Positions 1 to 11,081 of a stretch of 11,081 nucleotides of DNA are shown one piece after another. A program made the translations under genes and the position numbers. The stretch's first letter is position 1. Each line of letters opens with the position of its first letter. Source of the stretch: a virus (lineage: Duplodnaviria > Heunggongvirae > Uroviricota > Caudoviricetes). Where the stretch lies: positions 1-11,081 of IMG/VR virus record IMGVR_UViG_2534681697_000014. The stretch is one strand, 5' to 3'. The notes below the pieces were generated by a model. The model had not been told where the DNA came from and ran no database searches. It saw nothing but the letters and a program-made list of their open reading frames with translations.

Positions 1-24
1 CGCCTAACCAATAAGGCGCCGGGA

Positions 25-603
25 GTGTCGGGCGCTTCACGCAACGGTACGCGCCGCGCCATTACGCCGGAACATTACCAGCAGGTGATGGAGAAAGCCC
101 GCGCTGAGGATGCGGGGCTGGCTGCGGCGCTGGAGATCGCGCGACTGATGGGGTTACGCTCGCAGGAAACGGTACAGAGTTCACTGTCGCTGAAAACGTG
201 GCTGAAAGCCATTGAGCGCGGGGAAAACCGGCTGAAAGTGATGTTTGGCACCAAAGGTGGGCGTCCCCGCCATACGACAGCTCTGGATACTGGCGCAGTC
301 AGGAAAGCCGTTGAAAAAGCGTTAATTGTAGCAGAACAACACAATGGCAGGCTGATCGACAAGCCTGATCTCAAAATGGCGCTGGAGAGCTGGCACAAAC
401 AGGTCATTAAGGTGGGGCTGAAGGGGGAATTTTCCCCTCACTCCCTGCGCTATGCCTGGGCGCAGGATGCGATCCGCCATTATCTGGCGCAGGGATTCAG
501 CGAAAAGGAGTCACTGGCGCTGACGGCGACGGATCTGGGCCACGGCGACGGTCGTGGGCGCTGGGTGAAACAGGTGTACGGCTACCGCTGGAAGGAGGAA
601 TGA
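25..603 (+). CDS. Small tyrosine site-specific recombinase, FimB/FimE size class (192 aa from GTG at 25; frame is open to position 1, so the start may lie upstream)
   Basis: Translation shows tyrosine-recombinase catalytic boxes: LEIARLMGLRSQE (box I Arg), TKGGRPRH (Lys hairpin), HSLRYAWA (HxLR), LGHGDGRGRWVKQVY (C-terminal Tyr). N-terminus RRAITPEHYQQVMEKA resembles FimE KRRYLTGKEVQAMMQA as recalled from memory. Possible RBS AAGG 8 nt before GTG. Confidence 0.6.
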   Translation: MSGASRNGTRRAITPEHYQQVMEKARAEDAGLAAALEIARLMGLRSQETVQSSLSLKTWLKAIERGENRLKVMFGTKGGRPRHTTALDTGAVRKAVEKALIVAEQHNGRLIDKPDLKMALESWHKQVIKVGLKGEFSPHSLRYAWAQDAIRHYLAQGFSEKESLALTATDLGHGDGRGRWVKQVYGYRWKEE

Positions 604-789
604 CGGATTTCATGAATGGCGCAAAATAGTACGTTACTGCGTAACGACAGCGATTTATCGTACCCTCTGTACCGGATCTGGCGCAGGGGCGAGCGGGTTT
701 GTATTGTGAAAATATCGTTACAGCATGACGAATAAATATCAACAGATCAGATTTCCCTGCTTCACCAATATAGTTTGCCGGAATATTAT

Positions 790-811
790 AGTGATTACCC
801 CTGTAATCACT
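790..811. repeat. 22-bp palindrome AGTGATTAC-CCCT-GTAATCACT (GTGATT-N8-AATCAC)
   Basis: Read directly; 9-bp perfectly complementary arms around a 4-nt centre. Confidence 0.7.
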
Positions 812-1454
812 CGAAATGCTCCCTGGTAATAACAGGTGTTTCAATCGTTTTTACCGATACTACAGGGTTGGGAAAATTTTAAAATGTAAATTCACCGGGG
901 CTCACATTAATTCTGGCACAGGGTTATATCTGAATAATTCTCTCTGTGTTTTTCCGTATCCTGTTATATATATTGTATGGTCTCAGGATGCCTCATGATT
1001 TTATAAAAATGCTGCGACGGTTTTTGATATCATAACCTGCTGCATATAAATTAACAATTTTCGCTGCTTCATGTTATTTTTTTGCACTCTGTGACCGTTA
1101 TTGTGTGGTGAAATGCAATCTGGTGCAGGCAGTCATGGTGTATTTCCGAATGAACTGGTTACGCCAGAAAGGGAAAGGGTTATAAAGGTTAAGGGAGCGA
1201 TAAGGGTAACAGCGCCTGACCGGAAAGGGCCGAAAACCAAGGGCAAGAAACTGGCGCAGTCCTGAATGGATAGAGCGGCGGGACGCTGGCGCAGATAGCA
1301 GATTATCCGGGACGGGGGCAGATTATTTTGTCTTTATATAGCTGGTGCAGTGATGATATGTATCAGGAAGGATTATACGGTATTATAAGGCGCAATTTTG
1401 GGGATGTATTAATTGGTGATTCCGTGGAAACATCGATTATTGATAGCTTTTCAG

Positions 1455-1484
1455 CTTCCGTGATTAACATGTTAATCACGGAAG
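1455..1484. repeat. 30-bp perfect palindrome CTTCCGTGATTAACA|TGTTAATCACGGAAG (GTGATT-N8-AATCAC) in repeat copy A
   Basis: Read directly; the two halves are exact reverse complements. Confidence 0.8.
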
Positions 1485-1673
1485 GTGGCTGTCTATTGAA
1501 AACAGATGAATTGATAGGTTTTCACCTGAATTATTGGAAACCAAATAATTTCAGACTTATATCTATCTGGTATCTGATGTAGTTCTTACAGGCTTCAGAG
1601 TATAGGGTCAGGAGATATTCTGGAGTATTAATTGGCATTTCCGTGAAAATATCACGTATTGATAGCTTTTCAT

Positions 1674-1703
1674 CTTCTGTGATTTGCGGGCAAATCACAG
1701 AAG
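1674..1703. repeat. 30-bp near-perfect palindrome CTTCTGTGATTTGC-GG-GCAAATCACAGAAG (GTGATT-N8-AATCAC) in repeat copy B
   Basis: Read directly; differs from the copy-A palindrome by symmetric (compensatory) substitutions in both arms and a different, still self-complementary, centre. Confidence 0.8.
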
Positions 1704-1890
1704 GTAGTTATCTATCAATAATATATTTATTAATAGGCAATCGCCTGAAAATACTCTACTTGAATAATTTCTGGTACTTACCTATTAATAAGTAGTTCAT
1801 TGATTGGTTTTCACCCAAAATTATTTGGGGCCAAATATTTATAGATGTTTTCCGATTGATAATAACAAAAAAACGGCAATATCTATCAAC

Positions 1891-1928
1891 AAAAAAAAGC
1901 AGATCCCGGTCAATCAGGATCTGCTTTT
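1891..1928. terminator. Bidirectional intrinsic terminator downstream of the P4-type integrase
   Basis: A8 run (1891-1898), 8-bp stem GCAGATCC/GGATCTGC with 10-nt loop (1899-1924), then TTTT (1925-1928); U-tract follows the stem on either strand. About 30 bp past the integrase stop (1959). Confidence 0.6.
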
Positions 1929-1958
1929 CCAGTTTTAATGATTTACGCTATTTCTGAT

Positions 1959-3221
1959 TCAGGCTGCCTTATGCTGCCGCGCATAAATGTACGGCGCGAC
2001 ATACCCCTCGCGGCACACATCCAGATAATCCGACCACCACTGCATCATGGCCTTTCTGGCCTCCAGATGCTCTGCTTTATGCACATATGCCGCCCGCACG
2101 CTGTTGCGCTCCTGGTGGCTCATTTGCCGCTCCACCGTATCGCGTGACCACAGGTCCGACTCCACCAGGGCGCTACAGGCCATTGCCCTGAGTCCATGCC
2201 CACAGACTTCAGTTTTCGTATCATACCCCATCAGACGCAGCGCCCGGTTGGTGGTGTTTTCACTCATTGGCTTGTACGGATTATGGTCGCCGGGAAACAC
2301 CAGATCCAGATGGCCGGAAAGCTCCTGTATCTGTTTCAGAATGGCAATCGCCTGGCGGGAGAGCGGCACGATATGCGGGGTACGCATTTTTGCGCCACGC
2401 CCCGAAAACCGTACTTTATCAATTGCCTCGCGGGTGGCGGGAATGGTCCAGATTTTGTGCCTGAAATCAATCTCGCTCCAGTGGGCGAAACGCAGTTCGC
2501 TGGAACGGATGAACAGATGCAGCGTCAGCACCACCGCCAGCCGGGTTAACTCCCGGCCCTGCTGATAGTCACCGATGCGGCCAAGCAGTTCAGGCAACCG
2601 CTCCAGCGGTAAAGCGGGATAGTGATTCTTTACGGGTGAAGCGACAACGCCATCCAGATGCTGCGCCGGATTGCTTTCGGTAAGCCCCTGCTGAACGGCA
2701 TAGCGCATGATGTTGCTGAGTTGCTGCCGGGTTCGGGACGCGACTTCCAGAAAGCCTTTATCCTCAATAACCCGCAACAAAGCAGTGAAATCCTGCGTTT
2801 TAAGCGTGGCAACGGGCAGATGACCAATCGCCGGGAAGATATGGTTTTCCATACTGGCGAGAATACGGGCGGCATACTCAGCCGACCATTTTTTGTTGGT
2901 TTTGTGCCAGGCCAGCGCCACCGCCTTAAAGCACTTTTCAGGGGAGCAGGCTGCTTTCTCTGCCATGCGCTGCTGCGCCGGGTTGATATTCTGCGCCAGT
3001 AACTTACGGATACCGTCGCGCTGCTGCCTGGCTTCTGCCAGTGAGACCAGCGGATATGCGCCAAGACTGACTCTGGATTCTTTTCCGTTGAAACGATATT
3101 TGAGATACCAGATGCGTGAACCGCTCGGATTGACGAGCAGATACAGACCGTGAGAGCCGGAGAGTTTTACCGGACGGGAAGAGGGTTTTAACTTGCGGAT
3201 TTTAGAATCGTTTAAAGACAT
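1959..3221 (-). CDS. P4-type (tRNA-associated) tyrosine integrase, 420 aa
   Basis: Track ORF 1959..3323 carries a 34-codon in-frame extension; family-typical N-terminus MSLNDSKIRKLKP starts at ATG 3219-3221. Catalytic-domain signatures are present (RSSELR, HGLRAMA, RAAYVHKAEH). Lies 161 bp from the 3' end of tRNA-Asn on the same strand. Confidence 0.9.
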   Translation of the reverse strand: MSLNDSKIRKLKPSSRPVKLSGSHGLYLLVNPSGSRIWYLKYRFNGKESRVSLGAYPLVSLAEARQQRDGIRKLLAQNINPAQQRMAEKAACSPEKCFKAVALAWHKTNKKWSAEYAARILASMENHIFPAIGHLPVATLKTQDFTALLRVIEDKGFLEVASRTRQQLSNIMRYAVQQGLTESNPAQHLDGVVASPVKNHYPALPLERLPELLGRIGDYQQGRELTRLAVVLTLHLFIRSSELRFAHWSEIDFRHKIWTIPATREAIDKVRFSGRGAKMRTPHIVPLSRQAIAILKQIQELSGHLDLVFPGDHNPYKPMSENTTNRALRLMGYDTKTEVCGHGLRAMACSALVESDLWSRDTVERQMSHQERNSVRAAYVHKAEHLEARKAMMQWWSDYLDVCREGYVAPYIYARQHKAA

Positions 3222-3382
3222 TTGAGGGCCACTCCAGAATCGAACCAAACTGCCCCCAGATCTGACCACCAAATTATCCCGATGCGGAGAGAAAACTAGA
3301 TACGCACCGGGAAGGATTTTCACGCTAACTTACTGAATCGTAAACAAATAGAAACGTACAGATAAGCATGAAAACTTGAATT

Positions 3383-3458
3383 TGGCTCCTCTGACTGGAC
3401 TCGAACCAGTGACATACGGATTAACAGTCCGCCGTTCTACCGACTGAACTACAGAGGA
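3383..3458 (-). tRNA. asnT: tRNA-Asn (anticodon GUU), 76 nt
   Basis: Reverse complement reads TCCTCTGTAGTTCAGTCGGTAGAACGGCGGACTGTTAATCCGTATGTCACTGGTTCGAGTCCAGTCAGAGGAGCCA, matching E. coli tRNA-Asn as recalled, with CUGUUAA anticodon loop and encoded CCA. The asnT name (rather than another asn copy) is from position next to mtfA. Confidence 0.95.
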
Positions 3459-3558
3459 ATCGTGTGAACGGGGCGCATATTACTTAGCGGTACCTTGTCT
3501 GTCAACACTAAATTTCATAAGTCATTTCAATTGGTTAATTAATCTGCAAAGTTGTTAA

Positions 3559-4356
3559 TTAATGAACATTCGTCGCCGAAAACGAGTCTGTATCATTAGC
3601 GTGATGCAGTCTCTGCAAAGGATCTTGTTGATAAAATTGGCAGAAACGTTGCCACAATGAAGGGAAACGAGGAGCAAAAAGTTCTGGGGCGCTAAAGAAA
3701 TATTCAGAAAGTACGGCAAAACATTCAGCAGGATCGCTGGCAGCATAAGCATCAATGCTCGCCGCATTCTCGCCAACTAATTCGATTTCTTCCTGAATGT
3801 TGTTCATTGCAGCATGAAGATCGTGTTCCCAGCCAGCAACCTCACGCAACGGAATAAAGGGAACTTCGCTGGCGCGATCGCCGTTACGGGTGTCCAGCTT
3901 ATGAGCGACTTCATGAATAATCAGGTTAAAACCAGAAGCATCAAAAGAATCTTGTATATCCAACCAGTTCAAAACGATAGGCCCTTGCTGCCAGCTCTGA
4001 CCTGACTGAACAATACGTTGGTTATGCACCAGACCGATATCGTCTTCCCATTCATCATCGACCACAAATGGCGCAGGATAAATTAAGACTTCATGAAAAC
4101 CATCCAGCCATTCCAGTCCTAACTCCAGAACGGGTAGGCAAAATAGAAGTGCTATCCGGCAGCTTCTTAATGAATCCAGTTCAAAGCTCTGTAAAGGAAC
4201 AAGCCGCTTTTGCTGTAAAAAACGTTCGGCAAGAGTGACTAATTTGCTTTGTTCCTGTTCCGTCAGACACGTTAAAAGGGGGATCGATAGTGCTTCCTGC
4301 CAGGGAAGGGCAGTTTGATGTGCTGATTCTTGTACTTTCCAGGGCCACTTAATCAT
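3559..4356 (-). CDS. mtfA: MtfA (Mlc titration factor A / YeeI), zinc-dependent peptidase, 265 aa
   Basis: Translation from ATG 4354-4356 begins [23 protein letters not shown] and contains the HEVAHKLD metalloprotease motif; it matches E. coli MtfA as recalled. The track ORF start at 4395 is a 13-codon upstream extension. Confidence 0.9.
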
Positions 4357-4449
4357 CGTTTTGCTCGCAAACTCGTCACTTGAACAAAATTGCACGGACA
4401 GGGACTGTTAAAATGCCAAATTTCTTGGCATCATGGCAACCATCTGAAC

Positions 4450-4539
4450 GGAGAGATGCCGGAGCGGCTGAACGGACCGGTCTCGAAAACCGGAGTGGGG
4501 GCAACTCCACCGGGGGTTCAAATCCCCCTCTCTCCGCCA
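4450..4539 (+). tRNA. serU: tRNA-Ser (anticodon CGA), 90 nt with long variable arm
   Basis: GGAGAGATGCCGGAGCGGCTGAACGGACCGGTCTCGAAAACCGG...GGTTCAAATCCCCCTCTCTCCGCCA; anticodon loop CUCGAAA; encoded CCA. Confidence 0.95.
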
Positions 4540-4566
4540 AAATTCAATCACTTATACATCATTAAG

Positions 4567-5604
4567 TCAGTGACAAAAATCACACTTGGAATTACTTGGA
4601 ATATTTTCAGGTAACGGGACATCAAGTGTCGGTGAAACTTTAACCTTCCTGTCATAGATTAGCACTTGCCCCTCGGTTTTGTGACCAGAGAAAAGTTGCT
4701 TATCCCGACTGCTTCCTTCATAGTCTGAAATTCCTTTCGCCTTCAGATCATGAAAGGTGAAGTCGGTTAAAATACCTGAAATTTTGCCTGCGCGATTTCT
4801 TGCTTCTACCCACATTTCGTTAAAGCCTTTGTACATATATCGGTTGCCGTATTGATTGCTGATTACATAGGCGGATGTTGGTAACTGTTTTGCTTTTTCG
4901 ATCGCCGCCTGTAATCGTGGACTCCATGCTTTTATCTGTTTTTTTCCTGTTTTCCCTTGCTGGATAAAGATCCCGTCGTTTCCAATCTGCTCCCATTTCA
5001 GCGATAACACATCGGAAACCCTCGCTGCACACAGATAGGCAATTTCCATTGCGATAAAAACAGGAAGAGGTGCAACGCTTAATACTGCCTGGTATTCTTT
5101 GTCGGTTACATATCGTTCGCGGTTTTTGGCCTTGAATTTACTTACACCTGCACATGGGTTAGCCTTCACGTACCCTCGCTCATACCCCCAACTGTAAACG
5201 CGGGACATACTGCTTTTTTCATGGTTGGCTTGCGTTTTACTCTGTTCCCCTCTCTTGTCCATGTATCGACGGATGTGTTCTGGTTTTATGGAATCTGCCG
5301 GCACCTTACCGAATACGGCAAGCAACTTTTTTTGATGTTGCAGATAATCTTTTTGTGTTCTTGGACTGAGGTCACTGTAATAGGCGCTGGCGAGGAATTT
5401 TTCCCACAAGCGACCGAATGTCATTGCACGATCGCGATTATTTACAGTTTCCTCATACTTTTTCCATAAAGCAGCTAAACCATCCTTGATGGCGGTTAGT
5501 GTTACAGATTCTCTGGATGTTGGTTTCCATACATAACTATATTTATTTGGGTATACATTTGGAGGTAATTTTTCGTGTTCAGGATTTTTCCTTCGTCTTC
5601 CCAT
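4567..5604 (-). CDS. Lambda-family prophage integrase (tyrosine recombinase), 345 aa
   Basis: 345-aa ORF with a C-terminal catalytic region (FHDLKAKGISD...GHKTEGQVLIYDRK, Tyr nucleophile); start codon overlaps the stop of the upstream xis-like gene at 5604. Confidence 0.85.
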   Translation of the reverse strand: MGRRRKNPEHEKLPPNVYPNKYSYVWKPTSRESVTLTAIKDGLAALWKKYEETVNNRDRAMTFGRLWEKFLASAYYSDLSPRTQKDYLQHQKKLLAVFGKVPADSIKPEHIRRYMDKRGEQSKTQANHEKSSMSRVYSWGYERGYVKANPCAGVSKFKAKNRERYVTDKEYQAVLSVAPLPVFIAMEIAYLCAARVSDVLSLKWEQIGNDGIFIQQGKTGKKQIKAWSPRLQAAIEKAKQLPTSAYVISNQYGNRYMYKGFNEMWVEARNRAGKISGILTDFTFHDLKAKGISDYEGSSRDKQLFSGHKTEGQVLIYDRKVKVSPTLDVPLPENIPSNSKCDFCH

Positions 5605-5807
5605 CAGATCGCACCAAAATTCGGCTCTACCTCGCGTGGTGGTAAAGTTTTATTGCAGGTAAATAGATCCCGGCTGACAATCGGTTTGCCACTACGATTG
5701 GTATAGAACGGAAGCCCGTTTTCCATTAACCATTTTCGCTGGTGGCTTGCATATTTGCAGCCCGTTAATATTAGCAATTCATCTTCGGTTAAAAATAAGC
5801 TGCTCAT
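5604..5807 (-). CDS. Excisionase-like small protein (DUF4224-like), 67 aa
   Basis: Sits immediately upstream of int and is translationally coupled to it (stop/start share base 5604); LTEDELLILTG...WLMENGLPF resembles the DUF4224 family found at the xis position. Family assignment is from memory. Confidence 0.6.
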   Translation of the reverse strand: MSSLFLTEDELLILTGCKYASHQRKWLMENGLPFYTNRSGKPIVSRDLFTCNKTLPPREVEPNFGAI

Positions 5808-5865
5808 AGCTATATCTCATAACCGCCGCTAACTATATACGGTTAGCGGCAATTAGGGTTGAACA

Positions 5866-6210
5866 TTAAAAATCAGCCTGACTCGGGATCAGTTTTTGCC
5901 AGATAGCTGAAACGTATTTTGCTTGGTAACGAGCGTCATCAAGTGCATTATGGCGCTCACCTTCGAATGGAATAGCCGTTCTGGCATCGAAGTCTATGGC
6001 TTTCCCCAGCTCAACGATTGTGCGTACATCGCGATCGTTGTAGTAACGCCACGGGCAGGGGATCCCCTGCCGTTCGTATGAACGGCGCAAAATCGTGTTG
6101 TCGAAGTTGGCTCCATTTCCCCAGACCTGAACAAAAAATTCACCGGAGTTTTCGTCGATAAATTCCCGCAATTGTAACAGTGCATCATCTAACGGGATTT
6201 CATCGGTCAT
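5866..6210 (-). CDS. C-terminal two-thirds of a DEDDh (DnaQ-like) 3'-5' exonuclease domain, 114 aa, separated from its N-terminal part by an in-frame TGA
   Basis: Contains Exo II (WGNGANFD) and Exo III (HNALDDARYQAKY) motifs; ATG at 6208-6210 lies 3 codons after, and in the same frame as, the TGA (6220-6222) that ends the upstream 695-aa ORF. Confidence 0.7.
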   Translation of the reverse strand: MTDEIPLDDALLQLREFIDENSGEFFVQVWGNGANFDNTILRRSYERQGIPCPWRYYNDRDVRTIVELGKAIDFDARTAIPFEGERHNALDDARYQAKYVSAIWQKLIPSQADF

Positions 6211-6219
6211 AATGGCAGA

Positions 6220-8307
6220 TCACGCTTCGCGTGATTGCTTAAGCCACCATTTAATGGTGTCCCGATCAATGACTCCGCCAGCAGTTTCCAGATCGATAGT
6301 CTTACTAAATTCGGGTCCCATATCTCCGGTTTGCGGATCGAAAAATATTGCATCTATTGAGATGATCGGGGCATCAGGATTTTTTCCCATGGTTTCAAGG
6401 TCGATCATTAGATGGTCACACGTCCTGCTGGTGGATGTGATTTCGTGATGACCATTCACCGTAATTAAGGGATCTGCCGTCTCGCCAGTTTTACTATCGC
6501 TGGCGTGGTCCTGAGCGCTGCCAGCATTCTCCTTGTGTGGATGTTCAGCGCCTTCCATTTCCTCCGGATCATTTTCCTGAACTTCAACCTGATTCTCTTC
6601 ATCGAATGTTTTCTGGTATGTTGCGTCGTCCATCACCGCGCCACAATCAGGGCAGTTGCCGCCACCGCTCTGACCGCAGGCGGTGCAGACTTTTTCCGGT
6701 TCCTGTTGCGCTACTGGTTCGGATTGTTTCGTTTCTGGCTCGTTTTGTAACGCATTTGGGCTGTTTTGTTCCGCTTTTTGGTCGTTCCGTTCCGATTCAT
6801 GCTGGTTCTGGTTCACAGAATCGCGAGTCTGGATCCCCTTGACCCATTTCGGATCATTAGGGTCGCTAATCCCCTCAACAAATTCACCACGCGATACAGC
6901 AAGTAACTTATCGGCGTCAGGCTGGCTGATATTGGCTGCCTGCATAATTTTGTTTACTTCGTCAGCGGTGACTTTTACTTGGTTAGCGGAACTCACCTGC
7001 GACTGAGCATCCAGCGACTGCGCGTTCTGGCAATGTTCAGTTGTATCCGGTTCCATTGTTTCAGTTGTTGCCTGTTCACCTGCCATTGCGTCAGATGGTT
7101 GTGGTTTTTCTTCTTCTGTTTCACGCTCAGTAACCACCTCGCGGTTAATTTCTTCCAGGATATCTTTTTCCGGCGTATGCCGGGCAGCTGTGAGAGTTTC
7201 CTTGCTGGGGTTCTCGTGATCAGTTTCCGTCAAATAGGCGTTGATATACCCCTGAAGGCGTCCCGGGTAGTGATAAAATTCAGGGTGTGCGCTTCGGATA
7301 AGTGCAAAAATAGCGGCGCGGGAATAGTCCAGAATACCCGGGGTTGCACGAAGTGCTGCGGACCATTCTTTGAACGGACTTTCTTTTTTCAGGACTACTT
7401 CTTTTGCGCGACGATAAACGCTGCCCGGAATTTCATAAATATTAAAATCCATCGGAAGTGTGGCTGCTGCAATCTCCACATCCAGTGTGTCGAGGGTGTG
7501 TACTAAATTCGGATTGCGATCGGTTTTGTTCCCACCGCCAGCATTAGCACCGGAAGCCGTGCGGGTGATGCGTGAAACACGATTTCCTTTCATCCACTCT
7601 TTTGTCAGCAGACCCCGATCAGTGTAGTCAGCGTCCAGGTATGCTTCGAAAAAAGCAGTTATTAGTCCCAGGTCTGAATTACCAGGATTAGGGAAAACTT
7701 TGTCAGTGTCACGAACCAGTTTGTGGAGGTCGCGAATCTCCAGCGAGTCGAGCAGACTGGTTTTATGCGAAATAGCCAGGGCAGTAACAGCCGGTAGTTC
7801 TTCAGCCCGTGCAATGTGTAATGCCTGGAGTTCGTCGCGTGAAACGTGCGTTACTGGTTTTTCGCTGCCGTGTTGAGCAAGCCAACGAATGGGCAGTTCC
7901 TGACCGGAGACAGGTAGAAGCATGCTCTCCTCAATCTCAGTCATGTCTTCGCCGTTGATGTTGGTATTATCAGTGCTGGCTGATTTGTCCTGAACAGAGG
8001 GGGAAGGGCCGATAAATGTCATTGTGATGCCATCTTTCCCGCCTTTTTCATAGCGGTTGCAGAATTCAGTATCAAACACGCCTTCTGGCGGAAGGTCGTC
8101 AACAACGGGCAAATTGACGCGGACGGGTTTTTTAAAGTCGTCTTCATCATAATCGTTGTCATCCATTGCGGTAATGCAGCGGGAGATTGCAACAGATAAT
8201 TTTTTTGCTGTAGTCCAGTAAAAACCACCTTTAATTCCTAGGCGTTTTCTTACTTTGTCATTTTTTGCTTCGCAATATAGTGCAAATTCTTCTTTATCAG
8301 TGCTCAT
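6220..8307 (-). CDS. Large acidic RecE-N-terminal-like protein (695 aa) whose last 60 residues form the N-terminal part (Exo I motif) of the DEDDh exonuclease domain
   Basis: Long ORF with ATG at 8305-8307; zinc-ribbon [15 protein letters not shown]; acidic low-complexity stretches; C-terminal [25 protein letters not shown] carries the D-x-E Exo I motif. Resemblance to the Rac RecE N-terminal region is from memory only. Confidence 0.75.
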
Positions 8308-8400
8308 TATTGATAAACCTCATCACAGATTTAAGGGTGAACAAATCTCTGCCATTGCTGACATATAAGAATGAAACTGGATATTTATTACGGTGCTGTT

Positions 8401-8592
8401 TTAAAATCCTGCCGGGATTTCGTTATTATCCTGGTGAATAACTTTATCGACCGGATAACAGTTGCCTGGAATTTTCTGTTCGGTTGCTGCTGCCATACAT
8501 TCCTGCATTGTTCTGTGAACACTGACTGCAATATCAACTGGCTCTCCGGAAACAAGAAAAACCGTCAGAATAAGTGCAAATACTGGATTCAT
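8401..8592 (-). CDS. Small hypothetical prophage protein (63 aa) with hydrophobic N-terminus
   Basis: ATG at 8590-8592 overlaps the TGA of the upstream gene (ATGA coupling). Begins MNPVFALILTVFLVSG, a signal-peptide or membrane-anchor-like segment. The longer track ORF (start 8646) is probably an upstream extension. Confidence 0.5.
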   Translation of the reverse strand: MNPVFALILTVFLVSGEPVDIAVSVHRTMQECMAAATEQKIPGNCYPVDKVIHQDNNEIPAGF

Positions 8593-8777
8593 TGTGCACA
8601 TCCTTTTGGCATCAGACGTAAACGGGCCAGCATTGAAACAATGCATACTTTATTTAATAACTCCCGTTCGTGTTTTCTTTTGTTAATGGCCTCTTCAGTA
8701 AATACAGGATTACTGATAGTGACACCAATTTCAAAACAACCTTCAGACGTATTAACGTTTGGTAATAACGTTTTCAT
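8589..8777 (-). CDS. Small hypothetical Cys-containing prophage protein (62 aa)
   Basis: ATG at 8775-8777 preceded by GAGGG at 7-nt spacing; MKTLLPNVNTSEGCFEIGV...CIVSMLARLRLMPKGCAQ. The 97-aa track ORF starting at 8882 is probably an N-terminal over-extension. Confidence 0.5.
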   Translation of the reverse strand: MKTLLPNVNTSEGCFEIGVTISNPVFTEEAINKRKHERELLNKVCIVSMLARLRLMPKGCAQ

Positions 8778-9345
8778 TATCGCGCCCTCAACAATGAGTT
8801 TTGTGATGCGGTGCCTGGTGTCTCCAGGTGACGTTAACCAGTTAACAATTAACGCCGGATACAGAGAATCCACCCATAACACTGTTTTTGGTTTTAACTG
8901 TTCCGCGTGCGCTTAGCCGCATTCACCGCATCACAAAATTCACTTTAAAAAGGGCGGCAGAGCAGTCACGGAGTAAAACTGATACCGCCAAACGTCACCA
9001 GAAAATTGATAACAGAGGGCGTTGCAGCGGGGTTGTCACTTAAGCGTATGGTCAACCTGACAACCCGGTGTCCTCAACGGGGGAAGGAATAATCCCGCCA
9101 TACTTACCGCCGCGCCATTTCGCGGATTGCCACAACCGGAAGCGCACGGTCGACGAAAATTTAACGACAGGCTATCTATGAACCAGCTACCTCGCCGTGC
9201 GCTTTCGCGTTATGGTCTGACTTTTCAGGGAAATATCCTTTCAGTAAACTGTCAGTGCCGGATGCTCACCCGTGTCCGGCGCACGCACTCCACCTCACCC
9301 GTGGAGAACTCCTTAATTACTAACCTTAGCTTTGTTGATTAGCTA

Positions 9346-9564
9346 CTAACGCGGGTATGTAATCATTCTGGCAATGCTTAATGCCGCTGCTTTTTCCAGA
9401 TTGGTGATATCCTGCTCCAGAGCGGACAGATTTTCAGCCTGCTTAGCCCTGGCTTCATTAGCCCATTTCAGATCCTGCGCTGCATTAATTTTCTGGCGCA
9501 TCCACTCATAAAGTTCATCATCGGTATAGTCTGGCGCGATGATGACGGGTTCTCGTTTCTGCAC
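9346..9564 (-). CDS. Hypothetical small prophage protein (72 aa, predicted helical/coiled-coil), GTG start
   Basis: GTG at 9562-9564 preceded by GAGGAA; charged, helix-favouring sequence (ANEARAKQAENLSALEQDITNLEKAAALS). Confidence 0.5.
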   Translation of the reverse strand: MQKREPVIIAPDYTDDELYEWMRQKINAAQDLKWANEARAKQAENLSALEQDITNLEKAAALSIARMITYPR

Positions 9565-9593
9565 GCTGATTCCTCGCGGTGCTGTTTCGCTTA

Positions 9594-9722
9594 TCAGCCG
9601 TTAGATTTTGCCGAACTGGAAAGCGCCTGTTTAAATTCGCTGAAGCTGAGAGCTTCTTCGCCTTCGGCAAGGCCTTCGAAGTATTCTTCGTAAGCCTTTT
9701 CCATGATTGTGTCGAAATCCAT
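9594..9722 (-). CDS. Small acidic hypothetical protein (42 aa), not in the ORF track
   Basis: My translation of the minus strand: MDFDTIMEKAYEEYFEGLAEGEEALSFSEFKQALSSSAKSNG. ATG at 9720-9722 sits 2 nt after the TGA of the upstream 51-aa ORF, with GGTGGG just upstream. Confidence 0.4.
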   Translation of the reverse strand: MDFDTIMEKAYEEYFEGLAEGEEALSFSEFKQALSSSAKSNG

Positions 9723-9723
9723 A

Positions 9724-9879
9724 TCACCCACCTGAATTTCTTTCCAGCCAGCGACGCGCTCCAGATTCGGTTTTAAACGTTTTGCTTTTGGTATACGTCA
9801 TTGCGGTGAAGGTGCCGTCCTGGTTGGGAAACACGCCGTACACCAGAGATTCGTTGTTGCCAAGATCGATAGTATCCAT
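9724..9879 (-). CDS. Small hypothetical prophage protein (51 aa)
   Basis: MDTIDLGNNESLVYGVFPNQDGTFTAMTYTKSKTFKTESGARRWLERNSGG; ATG at 9877-9879 preceded by GAGGT at 4-nt spacing. The 92-aa track ORF (to 10002) extends this frame into the IS66 end and is probably artefactual. Confidence 0.45.
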   Translation of the reverse strand: MDTIDLGNNESLVYGVFPNQDGTFTAMTYTKSKTFKTESGARRWLERNSGG

Positions 9880-10023
9880 GCTGACCTCATTTCCCCTTAA
9901 CGCCGGGGTAGCGGAACAAAAACCTGCTGCATAGTTATTAAGTAAGCGCCCCATCAGCGACGTCTTGTGAAAATTGTCCTGTCTGGCAACAATCGCGCCC
10001 ATCTATATTGATGGACACGAACG

Positions 10024-10698
10024 ATGAATTCCCAGACAACAAAAGATATTCCCTGCTTCCGTTCTTATTTGCCTGATGCCCTGCGTTTAAGATTTGAAGA
10101 TAAACTGACCATCCGGGCCATCGCTCAGCGTCTGGGTCTCAGTCATTCCACAATACATACGCTTTTTCAGCGATTTCTTGCATCCGGTATCGCATGGCCA
10201 TTGCCCGATTCAGTTTCATTCGCTCAACTTGACGCCATCCTTTATGCCAACAGAAAGAAGGAATTAACAGAGCCTCAAATCAGAGAAGGCTCATGGCGAA
10301 AAGAACGGCGAACCAGCTATAGCCGTGAATTTAAGGTCCGTCTGGCTAAGCAGGCGTTACAGCCTGGGGCTGTTGTTGCCCGGATCGCCAGAGAACACGA
10401 TATCAATGATAACCTGCTGTTTAAATGGAAAAGCCAGTACGAGGACGGATTACTGAGCGATGATGACATACAGGAATGCATGCCTGTCCCGGTGGCACTG
10501 ACTGATACGCCGGAGCCGACCAGACCAGTTACAAATCCCTTCTGGCGTAACAAGCATGATGAGCGCCCTGAGGGGGCTCCCGGAAACGTCCCACGGTGCG
10601 AGCTGCATCTTAAATCAGGTGTGGTAAAACTGTTTGACCCTCTCACTCCGGAACTGTTACGGGCGCTAATCCGCGAAATGAAAGGGGGTATCCGATGA
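10024..10698 (+). CDS. tnpA: IS66-family accessory protein TnpA (orf1), 224 aa as called
   Basis: HTH region RTSYSREFKVRLAKQALQPGAVVARIAREHDINDNLLFKWKSQY typical of IS66/IS3 orfA proteins; stop overlaps tnpB start (ATGA at 10695-10698). Longer than the roughly 135 aa I expect for IS66 TnpA, so the true start is uncertain. Confidence 0.65.
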   Translation: MNSQTTKDIPCFRSYLPDALRLRFEDKLTIRAIAQRLGLSHSTIHTLFQRFLASGIAWPLPDSVSFAQLDAILYANRKKELTEPQIREGSWRKERRTSYSREFKVRLAKQALQPGAVVARIAREHDINDNLLFKWKSQYEDGLLSDDDIQECMPVPVALTDTPEPTRPVTNPFWRNKHDERPEGAPGNVPRCELHLKSGVVKLFDPLTPELLRALIREMKGGIR

Positions 10699-11042
10699 TA
10701 ACGCTGCCGACCGGTACCAAAATCTGGATCATCGCTGGCATCACAGATATGCGTTGTGGCTTCAATGGCCTGGCTTCGAAGGTGCAGAACACGCTGAAAG
10801 ATGACCCGTTCTCCGGGCATATCTTCGTCTTCCGGGGCCGCAGTGGCAAAATGGTGAAAATACTGTGGGCCGATCGTGACGGGTTATGCCTGTTCGCCAA
10901 ACGCCTGGAACGGGGCCGCTTCGTCTGGCCGGTGACCCGGGAAGGGAAAGTGCACCTGACGCCAGCTCAGTTATCCATGCTACTGGAGGGGATCGCGTGG
11001 CAACATCCCAAACGGACAGAACGGCCTGGCATCCGGATATAA
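10695..11042 (+). CDS. tnpB: IS66-family accessory protein TnpB (orf2), 115 aa
   Basis: MITLPTGTKIWIIAGITDMRCGFNGLA...KILWADRDGLCLFAKRLE is the characteristic IS66 Orf2 sequence and length; AGGGGG RBS 8 nt upstream. Confidence 0.9.
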   Translation: MITLPTGTKIWIIAGITDMRCGFNGLASKVQNTLKDDPFSGHIFVFRGRSGKMVKILWADRDGLCLFAKRLERGRFVWPVTREGKVHLTPAQLSMLLEGIAWQHPKRTERPGIRI

Positions 11043-11068
11043 CCCGTGATAAAACAAGGGAATGAACA

Positions 11069-11081
11069 ATGAACTCCCCGA
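11069..11081 (+). CDS. tnpC: Probable 5' end of the IS66-family transposase TnpC (first 4 codons only)
   Basis: ATG at 11069 with AAGGGA 7 nt upstream, 26 bp after the tnpB stop; position fits the third IS66 ORF. Too short to verify. Confidence 0.3.

Follow-up and report, generated by a model that had tools for sequence, protein, structure and literature searches.

Why does the AT-rich spacer between two convergent tyrosine-recombinase genes carry three palindromes with the same half-sites, GTGATT and AATCAC, and do these mark recombination sites, operators, or structures that form within one strand? We addressed this question in an 11,081-bp stretch of DNA (positions 1 to 11,081 of the IMG/VR virus record IMGVR_UViG_2534681697_000014, referred to as the window), which is E. 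coli chromosome, with 1400-1860 being 100% identical to E. coli strain H6. The spacer (604-1958) spans 1.35 kb without an annotated gene, has a GC content of 33%, and is flanked by the gene for a Xer-like recombinase of the Integrase_1 family (25-603, + strand) and the gene for a P4-like integrase (1959-3323, - strand). We found that two of the three palindromes are the inner stems of a five-unit tandem array, and that the property preserved in this array is complementarity within a strand. Our preferred reading, to which we give slightly less than an even chance, is that the GTGATT sites are the stems of hairpin- or cruciform-capable cis elements and not duplex sites for a recombinase.

Three GTGATT palindromes that chance does not explain

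A sequence-only reading of the window had reported three palindromes of the form GTGATT-N8-AATCAC, and all three are where it placed them: the exact pattern occurs at 791-810, 1460-1479, and 1679-1698, and in none of 200 dinucleotide-preserving shuffles of the window (mean 0.00). Site 1 (790-811, no strand assigned) is a 9-bp stem, AGTGATTAC / GTAATCACT (790-798 / 803-811), closed by the 4-nt loop CCCT. At site 2 (1455-1484), the palindrome is perfect over 30 bp, and in most haplotypes over 36 bp (CACC...GGTG); site 3 (1674-1703) has perfect 14-bp arms flanking GG. An 11-6-11 or 11-8-11 layout is present at both of the longer sites, which differ from each other by the symmetric substitutions described earlier (CTTCC/GGAAG versus CTTCT/AGAAG) and by an inner A-T versus T-A pair.

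The centres are less regular than had been proposed. Those of the three sites (AACATGTT, which is symmetric, TGCGGGCA, and ACCCCTGT) differ from one another, and the claim that the centres of both 30-bp sites are self-complementary fails for TGCGGGCA, whose reverse complement is TGCCCGCA, with 6 of 8 positions pairing. The identical 8-bp spacing holds for all three sites in the window, but in 6 of 13 E. coli haplotypes the centre of site 1 is 7 nt long (loop of 3 nt). Diversity at site 1 is 0.035, compared with 0.096 for the spacer. A scan of 604-1958 that required 12 or more matches between arms of 13 bp returned only sites 2 and 3 plus the integrase terminator, and the same scan of a 6-kb, mostly coding stretch returned zero matches. 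Relative to shuffles, the fold z-scores of the sites range from -4.5 to -10.8, as RNA or DNA and on both strands. The shuffles, the scan, and the fold z-scores together exclude a chance origin of the three palindromes.

Sites 2 and 3 belong to a five-unit tandem array

Sites 2 and 3 are carried by a 219-bp tandem duplication (1406-1749, + strand; copies 1406-1530 and 1625-1749, 74% identity), which is part of an array of five units of ~70 bp at 1406-1850; the two sites form the inner stems of units 1 and 3. Comparing all copies of the anchor TTGATwGnTTTTCA across 24 Escherichia loci (individual loci are given L numbers below), we derived a common unit plan consisting of a box TTGATAG, 8 nt (nTTTTCAy), a palindrome, a further 8 nt, and a box CTATyrA. 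Each anchor in the spacer is followed by a palindrome, the sequence of which differs from unit to unit; likewise, a 34-nt repeat occurs five times (1422, 1493, 1641, 1712, and 1782), with a palindrome after each copy.

All units are on the + strand. Unit 1 (A; 1440-1499) consists of the box TTGATAG (1440-1446), the spacer CTTTTCAG, a palindrome at 1452-1487 that holds site 2, 8 nt, and CTATTGA. Unit 2 (C; 1511-1567) has TTGATAG, GTTTTCAC, the quasi-palindrome CTGAATTATTGG-AAA-CCAAATAATTTCAG (1526-1554), 8 nt, and CTATCTG. In unit 3 (B; 1657-1720), the outer stem TATTGATAG / CTATCAATA (1657-1665 / 1712-1720) encloses an inner stem at 1672-1705 that holds site 3, and the predicted fold is a two-tier hairpin with a 9-bp outer stem, a symmetric 8x8 internal loop, and a 13-15-bp inner stem. 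Unit 3 and unit A' of L010 have this fold in common (9 or 7 bp, an 8x8 or 7x7 internal loop, and 13-14 bp). Unit 4 (1728-1781) has the anchor TTAATAG and a weak quasi-palindrome, TACTTGAA...TTTCTGGTA (1757-1776), and unit 5 (D; 1800-1850) has TTGATTG, again GTTTTCAC, and the quasi-palindrome CCAAAATTATTTGG-GG-CCAAATATTTATAG (1812-1847). The palindromes thus fall into three types: GTGATT in units 1 and 3, AAATTATT-N8-AATAATTT in units 2 and 5, and TACCGGAA in unit 4. Pairing of the outer boxes is 5/7 in units 1, 2, and 5. Site 1 lies outside the array and has the GTGATTw arms in common with A and B, with no other homology to the units.

Single-unit states occur in E. coli (L007, L010, and L037), in E. 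whittamii (L017), and in Salmonella (L108), where the palindrome behind the anchor is GTACAAAAAATTTTGG-CC-CCAAAATTTTTTGTAC; the sequence duplicated at 1406-1749 is present once in L010, L017, and L037. These single-unit copies and the lack of palindromes in other genera show the array to be an expansion within the Escherichia lineage, which arose by tandem duplication of one ancestral hairpin unit.

Two other readings of the array were rejected. Small open reading frames (ORFs) run across the palindromes on both strands, but the repeat copies are ~59% identical as protein compared with at least 74% as DNA, and their indels are not multiples of three; we rejected these ORFs as coding and regard them as by-products of the repeats, and we found no ORF between the units. 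A promoter reading, TTGATA plus 17 bp, yielded no acceptable -10 element.

Complementarity is kept while the sequence changes

The proposal that complementarity is maintained as the sequence changes was borne out by two-sided changes in orthologous Escherichia copies. In unit 1 of L147, a G-C pair has become A-T on both sides, giving ATGATT..AATCAT (CCATGATT...AATCATGG; CCATGATTAACATGTTAATCATGG), and the one-sided intermediate ATGATT...AATCAC (of the L005 type) is common, accounting for 7 of 34 metagenomic copies. In unit 1 of L010 and L139, the centre has changed from CATG to CGCG and an outer pair from C-G to T-A. Double changes from A-T to C-G distinguish L030 from L147 in unit 2, where the stem is perfect in both, and L011 from L033 in unit 5. 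Unit 4 is the perfect palindrome TACCGGAAA-AA-TTTCCGGTA in L147, and elsewhere unit 5 is instead a perfect AAAATTATTCAC-nn-GTGAATAATTTT. At 5115-5180 of L005 (identical in L034), unit 5 has become a near-perfect palindrome of ~66 bp whose right flank mirrors the left anchor (GGCTTTCACCC…GGGTGAAAGCC), a cluster of changes that would be best explained by a single template-switch event. Whole palindromes are also swapped between strains, with flanks that are 85-90% identical.

Aligning 14 palindromes on their dyads, we found that 90.9% of cells were paired, a value biased by the choice of these sequences for being palindromes; 15 of 18 pairs had changed on both sides, and 0 of 500 shuffles scored as high. 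What makes this alignment informative is that symmetry is found in every one of the differing sequences that occupy a given position. Across 21 haplotypes, the inner stems of A and B together with the outer stem of B contain 4 variable columns out of 62, whereas the remaining columns of the array vary at 53 of 243 (p=0.0055, Fisher test). Variation in A and B lies mostly within the central 8 nt (the loop), and the outer stem of B has none (0/18 columns). By contrast, the palindromes of units 2 and 4 vary above background (19/49 columns, p=0.017). The preserved property is therefore within-strand complementarity, with the A and B stems conserved in sequence as well, and the two-sided changes argue for either within-strand pairing, as a hairpin or cruciform, or hairpin-templated mutation.

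Among homologous regions, the Escherichia copies keep the complementarity of their arms, whereas other genera have no palindromes; fold and covariation analysis returned strong fold z-scores and compensatory changes, but the wobble-type mismatches (8 U.G versus at least 5 C.A cells) show no strand bias, so RNA and DNA, and the two strands, are not separable on this evidence.

Recombination, regulator, and replication readings

Core sites for a recombinase had been one candidate for the palindromes. Read in this way, the sites would be duplex substrates of Integrase_1 or of the P4-like integrase, with 11-bp arms and a 6-8-bp overlap as in dif, lox, and FRT. The arrangement TTCCGTGATTA-ACATGT-TAATCACGGAA has the 11-6-11 format, Integrase_1 is small and Xer-like, lacks an arm-binding domain, and conserves the catalytic residues, and the likeness to dif/cer (XerCD), loxP, and FRT takes in inverted 11-13-bp arms, a 6-8-bp centre, and a Xer-like gene 0.2-1.1 kb away. 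Here, however, the overlaps differ among the three sites, which therefore cannot recombine with one another; site 2 is symmetric through its centre and therefore without polarity; and symmetry extends to 36 bp. The suggested search near recombinase homologs found no co-occurrence: 23 of 26 loci with an Integrase_1 homolog (62-90% identity) have no site within 1 mismatch, among them loci of E. albertii and Salmonella with proteins that are 87-90% identical, and loci in which both recombinase genes have become pseudogenes retain intact sites. We saw no inversion or site-bounded rearrangement among the 21 collinear haplotypes, whose copy-number changes end within the repeated flanks; the P4-like integrase, for its part, acts at the tRNA end, 1.4-2.5 kb away. 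We consider duplex core sites very improbable. A folded variant of the same idea, in which each unit would serve as a single-strand recombination or recognition substrate for Integrase_1 or host XerCD in the manner of integron attC or CTX-phage attP(+), also appears remote in our analysis. Under this idea, TTGATAG/CTATCAA would be a conserved outer duplex (7-9 bp), followed by a symmetric bubble of 7-8 nt, the length of a core site, and by an inner stem of free sequence. The appeal of this variant is that unit 3 and unit A' of L010 fold with an outer duplex, a symmetric bubble, and an inner duplex, that all units share the geometry of box, 8 nt, palindrome, 8 nt, and box, and that the outer box and left bubble strand are conserved next to a free inner stem, with a Xer-like gene adjoining; attC and CTX attP(+) similarly combine a conserved outer box, an unpaired core-length spacer, and a variable inner stem, and keep structure over sequence. 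The boxes TTGATAG and CTATCAA do not, however, match the RYYYAAC / GTTRRRY consensus of attC, the neighbouring protein is PF12834+PF12835 and not IntI, and we found no cassettes, no IntI-type insertion, no extrahelical bases, and no evidence of single-strand recombination, including recombination products in the 21 haplotypes. Units 1, 2, and 5 have weak outer stems (5/7 matches), the outer stem is invariant and hence without covariation, and Integrase_1 loci of other genera have no hairpins.

Operators for a dimeric protein that reads GTGATTw had been the other protein-based candidate, and the conservation of the half-sites is what such a protein would require: GTGATTw arms occur at all three sites, including site 1 with its unrelated flanks, and both arms are strongly conserved around a variable central 8 bp. 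The reader could be the Ner-like HTH_35 protein of the island, its host paralog Nlp/SfsB, or another host factor. The island protein is 56% identical to D108 Ner, the operator of which (CCGTGAGCTAC-N8-GTAGCTCACGG) is an 11-8-11 dyad with CCGTGA in common with site 2. The register does not agree, with CCGTGA-N18-TCACGG in D108 and CCGTGA-N12-TCACGG here, a shift of 3 bp per side. Moreover, tblastn found no HTH_35 gene in L001, L004, L005, or L011, the first three of which retain sites, whereas loci of other genera with HTH_35 have none. The HTH_35 operon is not preceded by a comparable dyad, and the sites have no operator-like position upstream of a regulated promoter. A symmetry of 30-36 bp exceeds what half-sites need, other units are dyad-symmetric with unrelated sequences, and L147 has a symmetric double change that affects the two half-sites alike; such a change would not restore binding of an unchanged protein and so is not compensatory for an operator. 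In an informal comparison with the motifs of host transcription factors (CRP, FNR, Fur, LexA, PurR, MatP, SlmA, TetR, and CueR), none fits in spacing. We regard the operator reading as improbable, and of the earlier argument for selection over chance, the exclusion of chance and the preservation of pairing stand, whereas the dimeric protein site is not supported. Least credible of all is an iteron replication region in a P4-like satellite remnant, modelled on P4 crr with its two 120-bp direct repeats and TGTTCACC iterons. Two direct repeats do lie downstream of a gene cluster beside a P4-like integrase, and the window has an excess of TTTTCACC and GTGAwww motifs (29 versus 14 expected, with 13 of the 29 in the spacer), but this enrichment is confounded by AT richness. 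We rejected the analogy on the grounds that no locus examined has a primase or initiator gene, no phage record has DNA similarity, and the 153-aa neighbour is unrelated to P4 ORF151.

Hairpin elements and the template-switching alternative

The rival that comes closest to the data is that the palindromes have no function: quasi-palindromes of an AT-rich spacer that were duplicated by slippage and made symmetric by intrastrand template switching, without selection. Template-switch mutagenesis at quasi-palindromes is established from E. coli and phage T4 genetics, and its signature of clustered or paired substitutions that perfect imperfect palindromes is matched in L005, with its 66-bp palindrome, as well as in L147 and L010. 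The fast turnover of palindromes in units 2, 4, and 5, the exchange of whole palindromes between strains, the absence of the array from other genera, and the frequent decay of both flanking recombinase genes into pseudogenes all agree with it. Template switching is a mutational process and not a function, however, and unbiased templated correction would not cut the substitution rate, so that the low variability of the A and B stems and the B outer stem relative to neighbouring non-palindromic columns is left unexplained. The recurrence of a palindrome behind the TTGATAG anchor in Salmonella and Escherichia alike and the arms of site 1, which resemble those of A and B without common flanks, also count against it. 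This main rival thus accounts for units 2, 4, and 5, though not for the A and B stems, and as an account of the whole we find it rather unlikely.

Hairpin- or cruciform-capable cis elements, our preferred reading, accommodate both the paired changes and the conserved A and B stems. A predicted promoter (1051-1080) and a terminator (1895-1928) are usable on the + strand, and the order of anchor followed by palindrome is found in the Salmonella single unit as well. The hairpins would form once the region is single-stranded. In an RNA setting, this could be a + strand RNA that extends from either the Integrase_1 gene or the spacer promoter as far as the terminator at 1895-1928; the A and B stem-loops of such an RNA may have a structural or stabilising role, or may separate the two convergent recombinase genes as a barrier. 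In a DNA setting, the region would become single-stranded in replicating DNA, where hairpin-templated strand switching could account both for the symmetric changes and for the speed at which the other palindromes turn over. Within the hairpin or cruciform reading, we consider a role at the RNA level possible, if tentatively, and a structural role at the DNA level doubtful.

Several observations weigh against this reading. One-sided changes in orthologous A and B copies (about 4) are as frequent as two-sided changes (2-3), and the lack of strand bias among wobble-type mismatches favours neither RNA over DNA nor one strand over the other. None of the sites is a convincing intrinsic terminator, as sites 1 and 2 have no T tract and site 3 has a weak tail; a terminator scan flagged 1672-1705 alone among the site hairpins, again with a weak tail, the real terminator being that at 1895-1928. 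Strong conservation of both arms is also expected of a protein site, and other genera do without the array. Finally, the GTGATTw arms of site 1, set in unrelated flanks, fit sequence-specific recognition better than a purely structural role, which keeps a sequence-specific reader, whether of duplex or hairpin, in play.

Among known repeats, the array is most readily compared with repetitive extragenic palindromic sequences and bacterial interspersed mosaic elements (REP/BIME) and with enterobacterial repetitive intergenic consensus sequences or intergenic repeat units (ERIC/IRU), which are likewise short, imperfect, hairpin-forming intergenic repeats between convergent genes that show compensatory change. 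In contrast to these, it is AT-rich, tandem, and not dispersed: the spacer is present in 543 of 5426 complete E. coli genomes (~10%), in every case on the chromosome, and all array matches in the 5426 genomes are at a single island locus, this island module. A test for dispersed copies of the kind seen with REP/BIME, ERIC, or miniature inverted-repeat transposable elements found none beyond the module in these genomes, and none on plasmids or phages. Because each known system failed a defining feature, we filed the element under none of them; it is a locus-restricted, tandem, AT-rich variant of extragenic hairpin repeats.

The island module and its spacer

The Integrase_1 gene (25-603) contributes the C-terminal two thirds of a 294-aa protein, its start lying to the left of the window. 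Named "integrase domain-containing protein" by the Prokaryotic Genome Annotation Pipeline (PGAP), the protein carries the domains PF12834 and PF12835 (Integrase_1), is remotely XerC-like with conserved R..K..HxxR..Y catalytic residues, and has no arm-binding domain. Its best PDB match has an E-value of 0.75, indicating no solved relative, and the family is uncharacterised. The P4-like integrase has arm-binding, central, and catalytic domains and adjoins tRNA-Asn (3383-3458, - strand), the 3' end of which is not repeated in 1-3300 as an attL/attR remnant would be. Both recombinase genes are often pseudogenes in E. coli loci. They share the bidirectional intrinsic terminator at 1895-1928 (no strand assigned), which has 12-bp arms and T runs on both strands and is conserved across all genera examined. 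Other genera have a short conserved element and the integrase terminator immediately behind the Integrase_1 gene, without palindromes.

The spacer is located at asn tRNA genes and has relatives at aspV and thrW; it heads type VI secretion system (T6SS), Rhs, and dnd islands. Integrase_1 usually belongs to a conserved module together with the 153-aa protein, the Ner-like HTH_35 protein, and a small ORF; many loci have a P4-like integrase convergent to it at tRNA-Asn, -Phe, or -Asp, and a remnant at tRNA-Thr has no integrase. Phage and plasmid collections gave no match except one weak match to a Salmonella megaplasmid that lies outside the palindromes. Among viral contigs, one is an E. coli prophage-edge contig (L039), and the other 68 matches to the 16-base anchor are due to chance. 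At gathering score, Rfam 15 identified DicF and two tRNAs only in the window, and within 550-2050 there were only sub-threshold matches to miRNA-like hairpins, which are meaningless. Terminators and known small RNAs are therefore unsupported as readings of the palindromes, whereas small-RNA stem-loops in general, the remaining earlier candidate, are conceivable. Literature searches with the exact palindromes, the conserved 16-mer, and the Pfam names returned nothing relevant; work on Fim-type inversions mentions no more than an asnW/asnV inversion.

The left half of the spacer holds further features. An AAGGG/AAAGG-rich element of ~100 nt (1165-1265, or 1118-1330 in its wider extent; …TAAGGGTAACAGCGCCTGACCGGAAAGGGCC…AACTGGCGCAG) is the sole part of the spacer conserved across genera, being present in Serratia, Klebsiella, Cedecea, Citrobacter, Kluyvera, Raoultella, Salmonella arizonae, and E. 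albertii, and in those other genera it begins ~55 nt past the Integrase_1 stop codon. RNAalifold found no covarying structure in the cross-genus alignment of this element, which could be a protein-binding site or an unstructured motif of the 3' untranslated region. Just upstream of it, the predicted promoter at 1051-1080 (+ strand) is sigma-70-like, with TTAACA, 18 nt, TATTTT, and an upstream TG, and is well conserved in Escherichia haplotypes. The motif CTGG[CT]GCAG occurs six times on the + strand (678, 913, 1120, 1251, 1286, and 1342; CTGGCACAG at 913), is also present in the short spacers found in other genera, and has two copies on the opposite strand within the integrase gene (2903 and 2992); its layout is like that of integrase arm-type repeats, although the arm repeats of P4 differ, being of the GGGGGCA type.

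Downstream of an Integrase_1 homolog in Klebsiella spallanzanii, at a distance of 1.3 kb, lies a further perfect palindrome (L022, 7169-7214). It reads TATCATTCTTTATCCTACATG-gtca-CATGTAGGATAAAGAATGATA, with arms of 21 bp, and is unrelated in sequence to the Escherichia units. Farther along the window, mtfA (3559-4395) is followed by tRNA-Ser(CGA) (4450-4539), which abuts the integrase gene (4567-5604, - strand) of a prophage that contains the gene for the small RNA DicF (8952-9003, - strand, 76.7 bits).

Implications

The combination of tRNA, P4-like integrase, spacer, and Integrase_1 makes up the end nearest the tRNA in several E. coli islands and is found in about one in ten genomes. Whatever the palindromes do, the readings of them as recombinase core sites or operators can be set aside. 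Should the folded-substrate reading prove true despite its low probability, it would place a system like attC or CTX attP in an E. coli genomic island. If the hairpins are not functional, the array would be a clear natural case of hairpin-templated mutation that mimics compensatory evolution, and a caution for covariation-based RNA discovery. If they are functional, they would represent a cis element controlling the expression or mobility of T6SS, Rhs, and dnd islands and would provide a first handle on the unstudied Integrase_1 family of recombinases.

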